Both the position numbers and the translations under genes were made by a program. 64,000 nt of DNA from assembly GCA_035495115.1 (NCBI GenBank), contig DATJGJ010000007.1:3136-67135 (forward strand), given 5' to 3'. This document shows positions 33,280 through 56,512 of this stretch, piece by piece. Each line of letters opens with the position of its first letter. Position 1 is the first letter of the stretch. The notes under the pieces were generated by a model. It was given only the letters and a program-made list of their open reading frames with translations, ran no database searches and was not told the DNA's origin. The DNA is from Minisyncoccota bacterium. GTDB lineage: Bacteria; Patescibacteriota; Minisyncoccia; Phycocordibacterales; PALSA-1337.

Positions 33280-34167
33280 ATGGATCCATTACATGCCATC
33301 ACGCAACTGAGTAAAGACAACTATCATTTTTTATTGAAGCAATTAGACAAAATTCCAGATTCAATGGAAATGATCGGCGCCATGCCACCAGAAACTTATC
33401 GATATCTCTGCGTTGTCGGATCACGCCACAATAGCTCATACGGAAAAGAAGCGTGCGAGAAACTCATTTCTGGGCTTGCAGGCTATCCCATCGTCATTGT
33501 TTCAGGCTTAGCTATAGGCATCGACTCAATCGCCCATGAAGCAGCATTAAAAGCTGGCCTGCGAACTATTGCGTTTCCTGGCTCCGGCCTCGATATCTCT
33601 GTTTTGTATCCCGCACAAAATATCGGTCTTGCACGTAGGATAGTAGAGGCTGGCGGGGCTCTCCTCTCGCCTTTTCCTCGACATCAAGAAGGAGTTTATT
33701 GGGCATTTCCTGTTCGTAACAAGCTTATGGCGGGCATATCCAATGCCGTACTGCTCATTGAAGGAGCTGAAGGATCTGGTTCGCTTCTCACTGCTGTTGA
33801 TGCAGGCGAGTTTGGTCGTGATCTTCTGACAGTGCCAGGATCTATATTTTCTCCATTATCTTATGGACCACATATGCACTTACGAGAGGCAGCGATAGCG
33901 GTTACTTGTTCAGAGCATATTTTGGAAGCATTGGGATTGGTAAAAGAGGATTCGACACGGACACAGTATATGACAAATCAAAATCTATTCGGCCAATCTT
34001 TCTCGCCGGACGAAAAACTCATCCTCGAGAAGATCAAAACGCCCATTGAAAGAGATGAGCTTATCCGGTCGCTCGACATGCCCGCAGGATTCGTGAATGC
34101 ACTTCTGATCGAGCTCGAATTAAAAGGCATCATTTCAGAGAGGCAAGGGCTGTTAATGGTCAACTGA
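33280..34167 (+). CDS. dprA: DNA-processing protein A (Smf/DprA)
   Basis: Rossmann-like GSRHNSSYG...IVSGLAIGIDSIAHEAAL; conserved dprA-topA neighbourhood. Confidence 0.85.
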   Translation: MDPLHAITQLSKDNYHFLLKQLDKIPDSMEMIGAMPPETYRYLCVVGSRHNSSYGKEACEKLISGLAGYPIVIVSGLAIGIDSIAHEAALKAGLRTIAFPGSGLDISVLYPAQNIGLARRIVEAGGALLSPFPRHQEGVYWAFPVRNKLMAGISNAVLLIEGAEGSGSLLTAVDAGEFGRDLLTVPGSIFSPLSYGPHMHLREAAIAVTCSEHILEALGLVKEDSTRTQYMTNQNLFGQSFSPDEKLILEKIKTPIERDELIRSLDMPAGFVNALLIELELKGIISERQGLLMVN

Positions 34168-34179
34168 AATTGATTACTA

Positions 34180-34624
34180 ACACGAATATACAAATATGCA
34201 CACAAATACCACTAATAACAAAACCATAATTTATCGTGAACTATCATATAAAATATATGGCTTATGCTATAAAACCCATAATATACTTGGACGTTTTAGA
34301 AATGAAAAATCATATGCAGATTATATTGAAAGCCTTATAAAAGATAATGGATTATTGTATCAAAGAGAAAGGCCCCTACCGAAAACATTCTCAGAAGAAA
34401 AAGCACGGAGAAATATTCCTGACTTCATAATTGAAAATAAGATTATTCTTGATTTAAAAGCAAAACAATTTATTACAAAGGAAGACTACTATCAGATGAA
34501 AAGATACTTAGTCGCTTCGAATATGAAACTTGGTATCATTGCAAATTTTAGGCAAATAAGAATTTATCCTAAACGAATTGTTAATTAATTCGTGGTATTT
34601 GTGTGCATATTTGTATATTCGTGT
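34180..34624. repeat. Perfect 33-bp inverted repeats (34180-34212 and 34592-34624) bracketing the GxxExxY ORF; possible MITE-like cassette or long RNA stem
   Basis: The left arm ACACGAATATACAAATATGCACACAAATACCAC is exactly the reverse complement of the right arm; the ORF's ATG lies inside the left arm and its stop is 3 nt before the right arm. Confidence 0.8.
34196..34588 (+). CDS. GxxExxY family protein (small PD-(D/E)xK-like)
   Basis: 130 aa with ...ESLIK..G..YQRERPLP...IPDFIIENKIILDLKA... matching the GxxExxY family pattern. Confidence 0.7.
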   Translation: MHTNTTNNKTIIYRELSYKIYGLCYKTHNILGRFRNEKSYADYIESLIKDNGLLYQRERPLPKTFSEEKARRNIPDFIIENKIILDLKAKQFITKEDYYQMKRYLVASNMKLGIIANFRQIRIYPKRIVN

Positions 34625-34642
34625 CGCATTGTGTAATACTAC

Positions 34643-37039
34643 ATGTCAATGAAACTCGTAATCGTAGAGTCCCCCTCAAAAGCAAAGACTATTTCCAAAT
34701 ATTTGGGAAGTGATTTTCGCGTGCTCGCTTCAGTTGGTCACGTGCGCGATCTGCCAAAGTCAAACAAAAAAGCCATCGACATAGATGGCGGCTTCGTACC
34801 TCATTATGAAGTTGTACCAAAAAAAGAGATCATCATCGAAGAGATCCGTCATGCAGCAAAAAAAGCTGACGAAGTATTGATCGCAACTGACCCCGACCGC
34901 GAAGGCGAAGCTATCGCTTGGCACTTGAAGGAGCTCCTCACTGACAAAAAGATCGGGGGCGTCATTTCATCGAGTAAAATCGTGCGCATCACATATCATG
35001 AAGTGACAAAAGAAGCCGTCGAAGAAGCACTCAAGCATCCTCGTGCCATCGATGAGCACCTCCGCGAAGCTCAGGAAGCTCGTCGCGTGCTCGACCGCCT
35101 CGTAGGCTACGATCTTTCCGGCCTCATCTGGAAAAAAGTCCGTTATGGACTCTCAGCTGGTCGTGTTCAATCGCCTGCGCTCCGCATCATCATGGAACGT
35201 GAGCGCGAGATACGTGCATTCAATCCTGAGACATACTGGAGTATCGCTGGTACATGGAAGACGACTTCAGCGGCCGCAAAAAATGCCGTTTTGGGACTTA
35301 CCTGTGTCGAAGAGCCCCGCGAAAGAAAAGAAGTTGATCGTATCCTTGATATCGCACGCTCGAAGCCATGGCATGTCGTCGATATAGAAGAGACGGAACA
35401 AAAAAGATCACCTAAAGCACCATTCATCACATCTACACTCCAACAGACCGCGAGCTCGCGCCTCGGCTTTTCACCTTCGCGCACCATGGGTATCGCACAA
35501 AAACTTTATGAAGCCGGTCATATCACCTATATGCGTACTGACTCGACCCATCTCGGTCAGCAAGCTCTCGAACAGATTGCGGTCACTGTGGGCAAAGAAT
35601 ACGGAAAAGAATATCTCCAGTTCCGTACCTATAGCGCAAAGAGCAAAAATGCACAGGAGGCTCACGAAGGTATCCGTCCTTCAAAGATGGCAGTGCTCAA
35701 TGCTGGCATGAATGAAGAGCAAAAGAAACTGTACAGACTTATCTGGCAAAGAACAATTGCTTCGCAGATGGTTGATGCGCGCGTCGCCCGTACAAAGATA
35801 GTAGCAAATATAAAAGATGCGGATTCGACTTCTCAGATCCCTGATTTCACAGCCAATGGTTCACGTATCATCTACGAAGGCTGGCTCAAAGCTGATCCGG
35901 AGTCTCGCGGCGAAGAAGTCGAGTTGCCAAAATGCGAGAAGGGCGAAAAACTCGATCTCATAAACGTCGACGCTCTTGAAAAGCAGACGCAGCCGCCTGC
36001 ACGCTATACCGAGGCGGGCCTCATCAAAGAGCTCGAGAAGCGTGGCATTGGTCGTCCATCTACCTATGCGTCTATTTGTCGTACTATAGAAGAACGTGGC
36101 TATGTCGAAAAAGAAGGCCGTGCACTCAAGCCGACTGATACCGGTGACGTCGTCTCATCTTTCCTCGAAGAATACTTCCCTACCTATATTAGCGATACCT
36201 TCACTGCTGACATGGAGAACCAGTTGGATGAGATCGCCAACGGTGAACGCACGTATGTCAAAACGCTCTCTACATTCTATGGCCCATTTTTGAAAGAAGT
36301 GAAGTCAAAAGAAAAGCTCGCCAAAGCGACCAACCTCGGTGTTGCGGATGCAAAGTACAAATGTCCAAAATGCGGCAGTCCGATGGATATCAAGCTCGGT
36401 CGTATGGGCAAGTTTATCTCATGTTCACGCTACCCAGATTGCGATGGTGCACTCATGATCGATGGCACTGAGATCAAAAAAGACGAGCCGATTGGCACTG
36501 ACCCGACGACGGGACTCCCTATCTTTGTATTGAATGGCCGCTTTGGTCCGTATGTTCAGCTTGGTGTAAAGATGCCGAAAGTAAAGAAAGTAAAAAAGCC
36601 AAAGGTACCAAAGGTCAAAAAGAAGGTTGGTGGAAAAAAAGTAACGGAGGAGGCAAATTCTCTGAAGGACCGAAGCTTGTCTGAGCGTAGTGATAACGGA
36701 GCGAGTTCTGTAGGTCTTGAAGAGAAGACTGTCTCCGAAGTTGCTGTTCCCATCAAACCTCGCATGGCCTCAATTCCAAAGGGCGTCGACCTTTCATCTA
36801 TCACTGTTGCTGATGCCATGAAATTCCTCAGTGTGCCCCGCGTGCTCGGCGTACACCCGACGACAGGTAAAAATGTCACTGCTTCGATTGGCCGTTTTGG
36901 TCCGTATGTTGTGCATGATACTAACTTCCGCTCTATTAAGGCTCCTTTGAATGTATACGACATCACTCTCGATCAGGCGCTCGCATTGCTTGCTCAAGAA
37001 AAGAAGCCTCGAGGATTCGCCAAGAAAAAGAAGGAATAA
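34643..37039 (+). CDS. topA: DNA topoisomerase I with a C-terminal zinc ribbon and a Lys-rich tail
   Basis: Toprim N-terminus (LVIVESPSKAKTISKYLG), active-site Tyr region, C4 zinc ribbon CPKCGS...CSRYPDC, KKxK repeats. Confidence 0.9.
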   Translation: MSMKLVIVESPSKAKTISKYLGSDFRVLASVGHVRDLPKSNKKAIDIDGGFVPHYEVVPKKEIIIEEIRHAAKKADEVLIATDPDREGEAIAWHLKELLTDKKIGGVISSSKIVRITYHEVTKEAVEEALKHPRAIDEHLREAQEARRVLDRLVGYDLSGLIWKKVRYGLSAGRVQSPALRIIMEREREIRAFNPETYWSIAGTWKTTSAAAKNAVLGLTCVEEPRERKEVDRILDIARSKPWHVVDIEETEQKRSPKAPFITSTLQQTASSRLGFSPSRTMGIAQKLYEAGHITYMRTDSTHLGQQALEQIAVTVGKEYGKEYLQFRTYSAKSKNAQEAHEGIRPSKMAVLNAGMNEEQKKLYRLIWQRTIASQMVDARVARTKIVANIKDADSTSQIPDFTANGSRIIYEGWLKADPESRGEEVELPKCEKGEKLDLINVDALEKQTQPPARYTEAGLIKELEKRGIGRPSTYASICRTIEERGYVEKEGRALKPTDTGDVVSSFLEEYFPTYISDTFTADMENQLDEIANGERTYVKTLSTFYGPFLKEVKSKEKLAKATNLGVADAKYKCPKCGSPMDIKLGRMGKFISCSRYPDCDGALMIDGTEIKKDEPIGTDPTTGLPIFVLNGRFGPYVQLGVKMPKVKKVKKPKVPKVKKKVGGKKVTEEANSLKDRSLSERSDNGASSVGLEEKTVSEVAVPIKPRMASIPKGVDLSSITVADAMKFLSVPRVLGVHPTTGKNVTASIGRFGPYVVHDTNFRSIKAPLNVYDITLDQALALLAQEKKPRGFAKKKKE

Positions 37040-54867: not shown

Positions 54868-55566
54868 TCACCACCCCTTAGCTTTGAGCGCACCCTCTGC
54901 CGCCTTCTGCTCAGCCTCTTGCTTTGACTTACCTTCTCCAGTTGCTACCTGCACATCACCGAGAAATACTGCAAGAGTAAATTTCTTATCATGATCTGGA
55001 CCTGTCTCCTTGAGAGTTTTATACGAAGGCGTCACACCTGCCTTTTCCTGAGCCTTCTCTTGGAACATGCTCTTTGCGTCGATCCAGGTCTTGTTCTTTA
55101 CGATCTCATCAATATCAATAATATTTAAAATATGTTCAGAGATAAAGTTTGCCGATGCATCATATCCGCTATCCATATAGATAGCACCGATGACAGCTTC
55201 AACTGCGTTTGCAAGGATGATGGCGCGGGCACGGCCAGTATCCTTTGCTTCACCCTTTGAGAGGAGCATATAGTCATTAAGGCCAATCTTATCACCAACT
55301 TTGGCGAGACTGACTGTGTTTACGATTGCAGAACGAAATGCCGTGAGCTCTCCTTCTGCCTTTTTGGGAAATTTACGGAAAAGAAAACTCGTTACCACAA
55401 GTTCAAGTACGGCGTCGCCGAGAAATTCGAGACGCTCATTGTGCTCAAGTCCTGATTCGCGATTTTCATTGATATATGAGCGATGTGTGCACGCAGTACG
55501 CAAAAGAGCTATGTCATTAAAGGTGACATTGATATGTTCAGCTAAGTTTTCGAAATTAATTTTCAT
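54868..55566 (-). CDS. rnc: Ribonuclease III
   Basis: RNase III signature ERLEFLGDAVLELVV, C-terminal dsRBD; start taken at MKINFENL. Confidence 0.85.
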   Translation of the reverse strand: MKINFENLAEHINVTFNDIALLRTACTHRSYINENRESGLEHNERLEFLGDAVLELVVTSFLFRKFPKKAEGELTAFRSAIVNTVSLAKVGDKIGLNDYMLLSKGEAKDTGRARAIILANAVEAVIGAIYMDSGYDASANFISEHILNIIDIDEIVKNKTWIDAKSMFQEKAQEKAGVTPSYKTLKETGPDHDKKFTLAVFLGDVQVATGEGKSKQEAEQKAAEGALKAKGW

Positions 55567-55609
55567 GCGATTTATTCGTAGTATTCGTGCGCATATTCGT
55601 GGATTCGTG

Positions 55610-56512
55610 TTACGCCTTCTCTTCACTCACAATAGTCACAGCCTTTGCAACGATCGGTAGAATATCGTTATAAAAGTTAAGTTCCAATATTGCATCAAGC
55701 TTGAACCATTTTGCATCAGCAAGACCTGGCTTCTTGGCAAGTGTAAGTGTCTTGAAATCTGACTCTGCCAGATAGTAGTGTACTTGCTTGCGAATCTTGC
55801 CAATCTCAGGGTCGTTTGCGATATATTCATTTTCACCAAGATCAGCGACTATCTTTACTTCGAGACCAATCTCTTCCATCACCTTGTTGATAGTTCCCTG
55901 CTTTGGATCAACTTCTGGAGGAATCTTACCTTTTGAGAGTGTCCAGTGACCGAAAACGTCATAAACGAATGCCATATAGACATCTACGCCATCACGAGCA
56001 TATACCACTGCACCACCCAAGTGTTGAATTGGCATTTGCTCATAAGGGACTTCGACCTTCTTTTTCTTTATCGGCTGGGCGTCTTTACCTGGTTCTCCGA
56101 GCTCCTTGTAAACTGCACCGAGCACACCATTGACGAAACGACCACTTGTCTCACCACCGAAAGTCTTTGCAAGCTCAATCGCTTCATTGATAGCCACCTT
56201 TGCTGGTACTTCGACACGATCCGCAAAGAGAAGCTCATAGAGACCGAGACGGAGTACGTTACGATCTATCGGAGAGATCTTGTCGATTGGCCATTCGGGA
56301 GCAGCCTTCGATATGATGTCATCGAGTTCGCCATGCTTTGCGAGAATGCCCTTCATAAGCTCGTCCATAAAAGAAACATCAGCTACTCCTGGTGCGAATT
56401 CTTTTGCATCGCGCAGGATGATAGCTGAAGCTGTAGTGTCTTTTCGGCCACAAAAATCCCACTCAAAAAGTGCCTGGAGGACAACTGAGCGTGATAAATG
56501 TCTATTTGCCAT
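55610..56512 (-). CDS. nusB: Transcription antitermination factor NusB fused to a C-terminal Nudix-like domain (degenerate Nudix box)
   Basis: The N-terminal ~145 aa are NusB-like (RSVVLQALFEWDF...ETSGRFVNGVLGAVYKE). The C-terminal ~150 aa show a Nudix fold pattern (GGAVVYARDG...WTLSKGKIPPE...NKVMEEIGLEV), but RE of the Nudix box is replaced by NK. Confidence 0.65.
   Translation of the reverse strand: MANRHLSRSVVLQALFEWDFCGRKDTTASAIILRDAKEFAPGVADVSFMDELMKGILAKHGELDDIISKAAPEWPIDKISPIDRNVLRLGLYELLFADRVEVPAKVAINEAIELAKTFGGETSGRFVNGVLGAVYKELGEPGKDAQPIKKKKVEVPYEQMPIQHLGGAVVYARDGVDVYMAFVYDVFGHWTLSKGKIPPEVDPKQGTINKVMEEIGLEVKIVADLGENEYIANDPEIGKIRKQVHYYLAESDFKTLTLAKKPGLADAKWFKLDAILELNFYNDILPIVAKAVTIVSEEKA

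Follow-up and report, generated by a model that had tools for sequence, protein, structure and literature searches.

A GxxExxY gene enclosed by inverted repeat arrays between dprA and topA of a Minisyncoccota bacterium: a probable member of a widespread family of selfish cassettes

Introduction

Free-standing homing endonuclease genes, such as seg and mob of phage T4, are lone nuclease genes positioned between conserved genes, and the homing enzyme I-Ssp6803I belongs to the PD-(D/E)xK nucleases. These genes are present or absent among close relatives, replace native spacers without duplicating the target, and reuse the same junctions. The intervening sequence (IVS) in the 23S ribosomal RNA (rRNA) of Coxiella burnetii is a selfish element of 428 nucleotides; RNase III cuts it out of the transcript, and tandem heptamers are located directly 5′ of its open reading frame (ORF) (PMC4990558). 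In REPIN/RAYT systems (‘REPtrons’), a transposase gene is flanked by inverted short repeats (PMC3116915, PMC3337134). Correia elements and other bacterial MITEs (miniature inverted-repeat transposable elements) are small and intergenic (PMC2649163, PMC2229807); transcribed hairpins of Correia elements are bound or cut by RNase III, and their ends create promoters (PMC2649163). Here, a 445-bp unit that separates dprA from topA is described in a stretch of 64,000 nucleotides, referred to as the window, from an uncultured soil bacterium of the Minisyncoccota (Patescibacteria; assembly GCA_035495115.1, contig DATJGJ010000007.1, positions 3,136 to 67,135 of the forward strand). The unit consists of a gene of the GxxExxY family (PF13366/TIGR04256) enclosed by inverted repeats. 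It is probably a recently acquired copy from a widespread family of selfish GxxExxY cassettes, which are bounded by inverted arrays of 8–9-nucleotide units and located between genes of operons. As far as the searchable literature shows, this cassette family is undescribed: publications on GxxExxY, PF13366, TIGR04256, and MITEs of Patescibacteria contain no description of the architecture and mention the name only in passing. The sole published functional statement found gives PF13366 as a family of unknown function (PMC3424549).

The cassette resembles a hybrid of an ORF-bearing IVS, a REPIN/RAYT system, and a free-standing homing endonuclease gene, and it departs from each of them in a defining property. 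Like the IVS of C. burnetii, it is a selfish insert of approximately 430–445 nucleotides with a GC content below that of the host, and it contains one ORF of 120–130 amino acids within inverted sequences that form a long stem, which in the cassette is predicted. Both have tandem short repeats directly upstream of the start codon, both are sporadic and horizontally acquired, and both are tolerated in a highly expressed transcription unit. By contrast, the cassette is located between protein-coding genes and not in helix 25 or 45 of 23S rRNA (rRNA is absent from the window), it encodes a PD-(D/E)xK nuclease instead of the four-helix-bundle protein S23p, and the cleavage of its transcript by RNase III is putative. 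No PDDEXK_3 ORFs are listed in a survey of rRNA insertions in bacteria of the candidate phyla radiation.

The cassette shares with REPIN/RAYT systems the arrangement of one small gene between inverted short repeats and the presence of the same repeat, in the same genome, as gene-less inverted doublets and intergenic singlets. These derivatives tend to match the flanks of the resident gene (6 of 14 hairpins and the solo array of the window). However, RAYTs are single-copy, vertically inherited HUH/Y1 transposases of the IS200/IS605 type that are associated with one palindromic REP sequence, whereas the cassettes encode a PD-(D/E)xK protein, have arrays of 8–9-mers as repeats, and occur at many junctions, sometimes several per locus, so that they look horizontally mobile. 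Correia elements have in common with the cassette the small size, the inverted-repeat boundaries, the intergenic location, and co-transcription with neighboring genes; their promoter-forming ends serve the adjacent gene, and the ORF-less hairpins of the cassette family resemble them. Unlike the cassette, which encodes a nuclease and is not accompanied by a target duplication, Correia elements duplicate a TA target and have no coding capacity. Among the hallmarks of insertion sequences and MITEs, terminal inverted repeats are present in the cassette, and a target-site duplication and a recognized transposase (DDE, HUH, serine or tyrosine recombinase) are not, its sole ORF encoding a 130-residue PD-(D/E)xK protein. 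As in homing systems, a nuclease gene is sporadically present between conserved genes without duplication of the target. Homing endonuclease genes, unlike the cassettes, have neither inverted repeat arrays nor gene-less hairpins, and the cassette protein is only presumed to cleave empty sites. An integron gene cassette, which has one attC site at its 3′ end and an IntI integrase with attI nearby, was considered and rejected because the repeats are present on both sides and inverted, the neighbors are housekeeping genes, and there is no integrase. Since it departs from insertion sequences or MITEs, IVSs, REPIN/RAYT systems, and homing endonuclease genes in defining properties, it is grouped more broadly with small selfish cassettes that have inverted repeats as their boundaries.

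Results

Structure of the dprA–topA element

The sequence ACACGAATATACAAATATGCACACAAATACCAC at positions 34180–34212 is the exact reverse complement of positions 34592–34624, with 33 of 33 positions matching and no mismatch, and a 33-nucleotide inverted match did not occur in any of 100 dinucleotide-preserving shuffles. The pairing of the arms continues inwards to 36 of 37 positions (34180–34216 with 34588–34624) and reaches 88% over 48 nucleotides. Among inverted repeats of the window spanning up to 3 kb, it is by far the strongest; the other two are 25–28 nucleotides long and match at 75–76%. No further match to the 33-nucleotide arm with three or fewer mismatches is present in the window. 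The inverted repeat around the GxxExxY gene is thus confirmed as real. Each arm is an array of short repeat units (Table 1). The stop codon of the nuclease gene (TAA, 34586–34588) precedes the perfect part of the right arm by three nucleotides and overlaps the extended arm, and the stop codon of dprA is located 12 nucleotides 5′ of the left arm. The GC content is 27–29% within the unit and 43–50% outside it; the ORF has 28%, compared with 46.7% in its flanks. No Rfam match with an E-value up to 1 is present at positions 34100–34700, and the whole window gives only tRNAs. A contig from an independent soil metagenome (L001, the same as L108) is 100% identical over 1377 nucleotides spanning both junctions; therefore, an assembly artefact is excluded. 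The identical GxxExxY protein is present in a further JGI sample, and NCBI assigns this protein to a metagenome-assembled genome of Candidatus Paceibacterota.

A preliminary description of the locus, made from the sequence of the window, had reported the perfect 33-bp repeats around the ORF, a start codon inside the left arm, a stop codon three nucleotides before the right arm, and a GxxExxY protein of the PD-(D/E)xK type. The coordinates agree with it, and the protein assignment is borne out by matches to PF13366 and TIGR04256 above their cut-offs.

Table 1 Coordinates of the features of the window and of related cassettes and hairpins
Feature	Position	Strand	Description
Left arm	34180..34216	+	Forward array of four units, ACACGAAT / ATACAAAT / ATGCACACAAAT / ACCACTAAT; includes the start codon of the nuclease gene (ATG at 34196)
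GxxExxY gene	34196..34588	+	130 amino acids, intact; minimal PD-(D/E)xK nuclease fold
Right arm	34588..34624	+	Reverse array of four matching units, ATTCGTGGT / ATTTGTGTGCAT / ATTTGTAT / ATTCGTGT
Putative hybrid topA promoter	34611..34639	+	TTGTAT 34611-34616 (right arm), 17 nucleotides, TAATAC 34634-34639 (host DNA)
dprA, upstream host gene	33280..34167	+	PF02481 (E = 8.7e-51) and DprA winged-helix domain
topA, downstream host gene	34643..37039	+	Toprim, Topoisom_bac, and zinc-ribbon domains
Solo third arm copy	55574..55610	-	Reads ACACGAATCCACGAATATGCGCACGAATACTACGAAT; four units; no partner arm and no nuclease gene
rnc (RNase III)	54868-55566	-	
nusB-NUDIX fusion	55610-56512	-	One ORF with N-terminal NusB and C-terminal NUDIX
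Cassette with NUDIX cargo	L031 2936-3878; L118 2047-2989		Encodes a 150-residue NUDIX hydrolase; its gene follows the nuclease gene and precedes the right arm
ORF-less hairpins, 90-120 nucleotides	L022 2334-2429 (= L007 3310-3405); L020, L025, L035, L037, L041, L042, L045		Forward array directly followed by reverse array, in short spacers
ORF-less hairpins, further loci	L063, L075, L082, L084, L089, L092		Same structure and placement

Cassette family in Patescibacteria

Homologues that are 47–70% identical to the window protein were analyzed together with their gene context in 80 species-representative genomes, nearly all of them from Patescibacteria, and in several metagenome contigs. The same layout of a GxxExxY gene between inverted arrays is found at many unrelated junctions in approximately 60 other species. 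At least two forward units upstream and at least two reverse units downstream accompany 59 of the 71 complete genes; among 291 control ORFs taken from these loci, 3 have this arrangement. The consensus of the repeat unit is [A/C]T[A/G]C[G/A]AAT (302 left-arm and 278 right-arm units) with a spacing of mostly 8–9 and sometimes 11 nucleotides, and each arm contains three to five copies. Six-mers from the repeat are enriched 15–36-fold upstream of the genes in the forward orientation only and 21–56-fold downstream in the reverse orientation only; CGAATG, ACGAAT, and ATCTAC reach 30–36-fold upstream, and GTAGAT and ATTCGT reach 34–56-fold downstream. The upstream units often extend into the first codons of the gene, which therefore encode N-termini such as MQQI, MRI, and M.TN.TN. 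The outer ends of the cassettes often read (T)ATAAT...ATTAT(G).

Arms of 35–60 nucleotides with approximately 80% identity are present in 65 of 74 elements. The mean inverted-repeat score is 45, compared with 18 for shuffled flanks. The arms of the window element are among the best-matched of the family, which fits a young copy. The earlier suggestion that the perfect arms reflect a recent origin agrees with this difference from the typical arm and with the foreign GC content. In four related pairs of elements, the arm segments have diverged by 4–20% where synonymous sites differ by 39–66%, and the arms are thus conserved well beyond synonymous sites.

The cassettes fit closely between their neighbors, with a median gap of 0.5 nucleotides between the upstream stop codon and the arm, and of 3 nucleotides between the arm and the downstream start codon. 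In 52 cases, the genes on both sides run in the same direction as the nuclease gene, and in 2 cases both run against it. The gene pairs split by cassettes include the small and large subunits of NiFe-hydrogenase, nusG and rplK (in at least seven species), tatD and def, and genes of glycosyltransferase clusters. The neighborhoods, which include hydrogenase, glycosyltransferase, ribosomal protein, and fab genes, are mutually unrelated.

Occupied and empty junctions

Relatives of the window show what the dprA–topA junction is like without the cassette. DprA orthologues with identities of 86% (L095) and 82% (L097) are encoded in loci that share the gene order serS-dprA-topA-parB with the window, and in which dprA and topA are separated by spacers of 47–51 nucleotides with no gene between them. 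A scan of metagenomes with an invariant 25-mer from the start of topA retrieved six further relatives lacking the gene and, again, the source contig. Nine related contigs in total are without the nuclease gene; five of these (L095, L101–L104) lead from dprA to topA across approximately 47 nucleotides, and the 3′ end of dprA is approximately 45–50 nucleotides upstream of topA, with no intervening gene, in L095, L097, and L101–L104. According to the gene table, dprA is also followed directly by topA in the locus of another, more distant dprA relative (P0126). Therefore, the 445-bp unit is an insertion relative to the sister genomes. The expectation from the preliminary description that dprA and topA are usually adjacent holds in this lineage (L095, L097, L101–L104), and the empty sites that it proposed to look for exist.

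A second set of empty and occupied sites is provided by the nusG–rplK junction of Giovannonibacteria with 90–93% identical NusG. The junction is empty in two loci (L115 and L121), with spacers of 7–9 nucleotides, it contains a cassette in a third (L022), and a cassette with an additional NUDIX gene in two others (L031 and L118). Because the NUDIX gene is inside these cassettes, the arms can enclose extra cargo. The native spacer is replaced and not duplicated at either junction, with 21 nucleotides missing between dprA and topA and 7–9 nucleotides between nusG and rplK. A check for target-site duplications, as called for in the preliminary description, was negative for 35 elements with well-defined ends and for the three occupied sites that were compared with empty ones. 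Proteins encoded at nusG–rplK belong to at least three neighbor-joining clades that also hold elements from other sites, which indicates repeated colonization. A junction can also remain occupied for a long time; nusG–rplK is an example from several lineages. Two elements that are 87% identical (L018 and L021) have unrelated flanks. The GC content of the ORF is below that of the flanks at all 55 testable loci, with averages of 31.6% and 42.5%.

Derivatives and decayed copies

The 520 kb of loci contain 14 ORF-less hairpins composed of a forward and a reverse array, which are located in short spacers such as secE–nusG and are missing from close relatives. Also present are approximately 40 more solo arrays, pseudogenized copies, and paralogous cassettes that are the second in their locus; in total, 70 arrays do not adjoin the focal gene. 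The window contains one full copy and one diverged solo arm, and other loci contain two cassettes plus hairpins. In L022, a hairpin of roughly 80 nucleotides is located between secE and nusG, where L031, L115, and L118 have none. When compared with the arms of 78 elements, 6 of the 14 hairpins match best the element of their own locus. Every other inspected pair of forward and reverse arrays 400–450 nucleotides apart contains a GxxExxY paralogue or pseudogene. No transposase genes were seen in the loci examined.

The first of two readings in the preliminary description, a MITE-like or cassette-type mobile unit with a gene of nuclease fold, is supported by the empty sites, the recurrent architecture, the derivatives, and the unrelated flanks. 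The comparison with MITEs holds for the inverted repeats and the gene-less derivatives, and does not extend to a target-site duplication or a recognized transposase.

Some host proteins have an N-terminal extension that is the translation of a solo forward array (L088 4643-5126 and L058 4549-5120). One example is a type IV pilin-like protein in which MQMHTNYTNKK precedes the GFTLVEML leader.

Promoter-like motif upstream of topA

A conserved sigma-70-like motif, TTGCAC-17 nt-TAATAC, is located directly 5′ of the topA ATG in eight of the nine gene-less contigs (L095, L097, L101–L107). The motif ends three nucleotides 5′ of the first ATG, and a second ATG six nucleotides further downstream gives the canonical N-terminus MKLVIVESP. 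The placement of the motif suggests that topA mRNA is leaderless, or nearly so, in this lineage. The window lacks approximately 21 nucleotides of the dprA–topA spacer, including TTGCAC; however, the outermost unit of the right arm supplies TTGTAT at the identical distance of 17 nucleotides from the resident −10 hexamer, and the resulting hybrid motif is positioned just 5′ of the two potential start codons at 34643 and 34649. It seems that the element has rebuilt the topA promoter that it displaced, similar to the ends of Correia elements and of some insertion sequences, which create promoters (PMC2649163). The putative promoter is suggested on account of its conservation across species, since a generic scan of the region for the sigma-70 consensus produced nothing above the shuffle expectation and is uninformative.

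One of the gene-less relatives, L097, has neither the nuclease gene nor the left arm, and contains AATATTTGTACATTCGTGT in place of the 21 nucleotides. This sequence is identical to the outer right arm at 17 of 19 positions and, in a manual alignment, only approximately half identical to the spacer of L095. It provides an arm-derived hexamer at the same spacing, so that TTGTAT or TTGTAC is found in the window and L097. What L097 contains at this site is the remnant of a solo arm or, possibly, a landing pad. The DNA identities of topA among the window, L095, and L097 are 85.3%, 82.5%, and 84.0%, which is nearly a trichotomy, and the first 500 residues of TopA of the window are 94–95% identical to those of L095 and L097. 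With the three almost equidistant, the events at dprA–topA may have followed more than one order.

GxxExxY protein

The 130-residue protein matches PF13366 (PDDEXK_3) with 75.5 bits (cut-off 22) and TIGR04256 (GxxExxY) with 72.6 bits (cut-off 35) over positions 1–116 of the 116 in the model, and it has no other Pfam or NCBIfam matches. It contains the family motif G32-RFRN-E37-KS-Y40 and the putative catalytic residues D76, D86, and K88. The motif, D76, D or E at position 86, and K88 are invariant or nearly so among 36 relatives. Residues 1–7 result from translation of the repeat array, and disorder is predicted for them. The predicted structure has a mean local confidence score (pLDDT) of 91.7, and all its top structural neighbors are PD-(D/E)xK nucleases; no solved structures are available among its sequence relatives. 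The ratio of non-synonymous to synonymous substitution rates (dN/dS) of the ORF is 0.06–0.14 in four related pairs, which shows that the protein is under purifying selection. It does not match the defence-system profiles of PADLOC and has a single weak match in PHROGs to a family of unknown function. No relatives were found in 2.9 million viral contigs, so that carriage by phages is unsupported.

The PF13366/TIGR04256 family is large, with 5,919 clusters at 50% identity matching the profile. Many database proteins of 270–900 residues (P0246–P0290 and others) contain a complete GxxExxY domain in a terminal position or in the middle of the chain. They are probably fusions with neighboring genes, or tandem copies, produced by gene calling, because the arms often lack in-frame stop codons.

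Solo arm upstream of rnc

The preliminary description had proposed a search for further copies of the arm, with or without an ORF. A third, solo copy is present in the window, and it does not enclose an ORF. The solo arm is oriented forward relative to the local genes and is positioned directly after the stop codon of the nusB-NUDIX gene and 7 nucleotides before the ATG of rnc (55566). Compared with the arms of 78 elements, it is most similar to the window’s own element. Seven of its 37 positions depart from the left arm, and one of the seven agrees with the right arm. Of its five transitions, four would maintain G-U pairing with the RNA of the right arm. The predicted duplex of the solo arm with the right-arm RNA has an energy of −54.5 kcal/mol, compared with −54.4 kcal/mol for the element’s own left and right arms and −18.8 ± 3.6 kcal/mol for shuffled leaders. 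A coupling of the element to the expression of RNase III would be pure speculation based on this modeled pairing. A link between the nusB-NUDIX fusion and the NUDIX cargo of L031 and L118 was rejected because the two proteins are unrelated beyond the Nudix box.

GxxExxY genes in other phyla

Outside Patescibacteria, the genes likewise occupy positions between co-directional host genes, as between fabD and fabG of Sphingomonas (L112), next to radA in Bacteroides, and next to ade in Bernardetia. The motifs of the adjacent repeats vary. CG[G/A]AT-type units recur at the genes in Treponema, where an 11-nucleotide inverted repeat ACACGGATTCG is present (L099), and in Gemmatirosa, where a CGCGGAT forward-plus-reverse hairpin adjoins the gene (L114). 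Bacteroidota have inverted CACAGAG arrays instead: three inverted CACAGAGGA units flank the gene of Bacteroides finegoldii (L109), and a CACAGAGA array is located at that of Bernardetia (L110). A locus from Fusobacteria (L100) has a 22-nucleotide direct repeat instead of an inverted array. Because arrays recur with other motifs in other phyla, sequence-specific recognition, most economically by the encoded protein, would account for them better than a generic requirement for double-stranded RNA.

In Prevotella nigrescens, the “hypothetical” ORF downstream of the GxxExxY gene (L111 1592-2023) is a tandem DNA repeat of approximately 126 nucleotides with ACAAATC-type units.

Discussion

Proposed mechanism

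If the window unit is a copy of a selfish cassette, its arrays would be cis-acting sites that are recognized sequence-specifically, most likely by the encoded nuclease. A break made by the nuclease may initiate the spread of the cassette, which host repair or recombination would complete. The cassettes would be copied in a homing-like manner between homologous junctions, with rare ectopic insertions. Such a mode of spread would explain why duplications are missing, why spacers are replaced, and why junctions recur. In a read-through transcript, pairing of the arms would produce a 33-bp stem around the ORF, in which the start codon is hidden. The stem would limit the synthesis of the nuclease and is a plausible substrate of RNase III, as in the intervening sequences of 23S rRNA. 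A broader proposal is that the PD-(D/E)xK nuclease of approximately 125 residues is the catalytic part of a new class of minimal mobile elements present in many phyla, moving its own cassette and the hairpins as a counterpart of RAYT and REPIN, and remaining harmless to operons through RNA excision and the donation of promoter and start sequences. This proposal is tentative and rather doubtful.

Several points weigh against the selfish-cassette reading. Nuclease activity, binding of the arrays, and mobility are putative for all members, and so is the homing-like route. The arrays are weak or one-sided in 12 of the 71 family members, and a GxxExxY gene of Persicobacter (L113) is without arrays. 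The orientation bias of 52 to 2 could stem from selection on host gene expression and not from a mechanism of insertion. Since there is no target-site duplication, classical transposition is unsupported. No near-identical copies were seen at different sites of one genome, in a sample with one genome per species, and the closest relative of the window protein is only 68% identical to it. The outer 19 nucleotides of the arm in the gene-less L097, together with the near-trichotomy of topA, require two events, a loss with retention of the arm, or an insertion beside a pre-existing array.

Alternative explanations

The alternative with the strongest claim, and one that partly overlaps with the mechanism proposed above, is that the arms act mainly as RNA: a duplex cut by RNase III would free the flanking mRNAs and silence or limit expression of the ORF, and the DNA repeat would be a mere consequence. 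It corresponds to the second reading in the preliminary description, a long-range mRNA duplex that would sequester the start codon and serve as an RNase III substrate. It is a possibility to be taken seriously, although we do not consider it the probable one. In both the predicted minimum-free-energy fold (−106.7 kcal/mol, z = −5.4) and the centroid, the ORF and its ATG are enclosed by the perfect 33-bp stem, the window includes rnc, and the 23S intervening sequence of Coxiella, an RNase III-excised insert, equals the unit in size and in its layout of tandem short repeats before an ORF (PMC4990558). The stem would be transcribed in 52 of the 54 cassettes whose neighbors share one orientation, as these cassettes lie in the sense direction, and cleavage of arms that abut stop and start codons would leave nearly exact cistrons. 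However, typical arms are only approximately 80% complementary, 346 of the 586 arm mismatches across the family are transversions, and the excess of wobble-compatible changes among the transitions is not significant (132 versus 108, p = 0.14). A generic double-stranded stem would not call for the observed conservation of the unit sequence across distant lineages, solo arrays are maintained with no partner arm, and no Rfam family matches. The pattern of mismatches, the conserved units, and the partnerless arrays argue against RNA pairing as the sole function of the arms.

The abundance of hairpins and solo arrays (70 arrays away from the focal gene) and the variable cargo, exemplified by the NUDIX gene of L031 and L118, could also indicate MITE-like terminal repeats moved in trans by an unrelated transposase with GxxExxY as a passenger, or general intergenic repeats similar to REP sequences and bacterial interspersed mosaic elements (BIMEs). 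Furthermore, we know of no transposase fold of such a small size. Such an origin is unlikely in view of the tight link of the arrays to GxxExxY genes (59/71 versus 3/291), which holds in other phyla with a different motif, the GxxExxY paralogues or pseudogenes in all inspected array pairs of 400–450 nucleotides, the lack of target-site duplications, and the lack of a transposase gene in the loci examined. It is about as improbable that the gene belongs to a domesticated host module functioning in DNA repair, RNA processing, or defence, with the arrays as regulatory or promoter elements that also drive the downstream gene. Purifying selection on the ORF, the conserved arms, junctions occupied for a long time, such as nusG–rplK, and the −35-like hexamer that the right arm provides to topA would be expected of such a module; against it are the patchy distribution among close relatives, the foreign GC content at 55 of 55 loci, the pseudogenes, related elements at unrelated sites, the unrelated neighborhoods, and the absence of hits to known defence systems. 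An origin of the inverted repeat by chance or by faulty assembly has practically no probability left, being already refuted by the 0 of 100 shuffles, the identical independent contig, and the same architecture in dozens of genomes.

Implications

The array shell, the stop-to-start placement in operons, and the gene-less derivatives provide the large uncharacterized PF13366/TIGR04256 family with its first testable hypothesis. The cassette family connects two long-standing and separate oddities, ORF-bearing intervening sequences of rRNA and orphan genes embedded in operons. The annotation of metagenome-assembled genomes is affected, as cassettes split conserved gene pairs and gene callers can fuse them to their neighbors. 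If it is true that the nuclease moves the cassettes, it would represent a new enzymatic solution to DNA mobility. The ultra-small genomes of Patescibacteria, which are usually called streamlined, would nonetheless carry mobile DNA within their operons.

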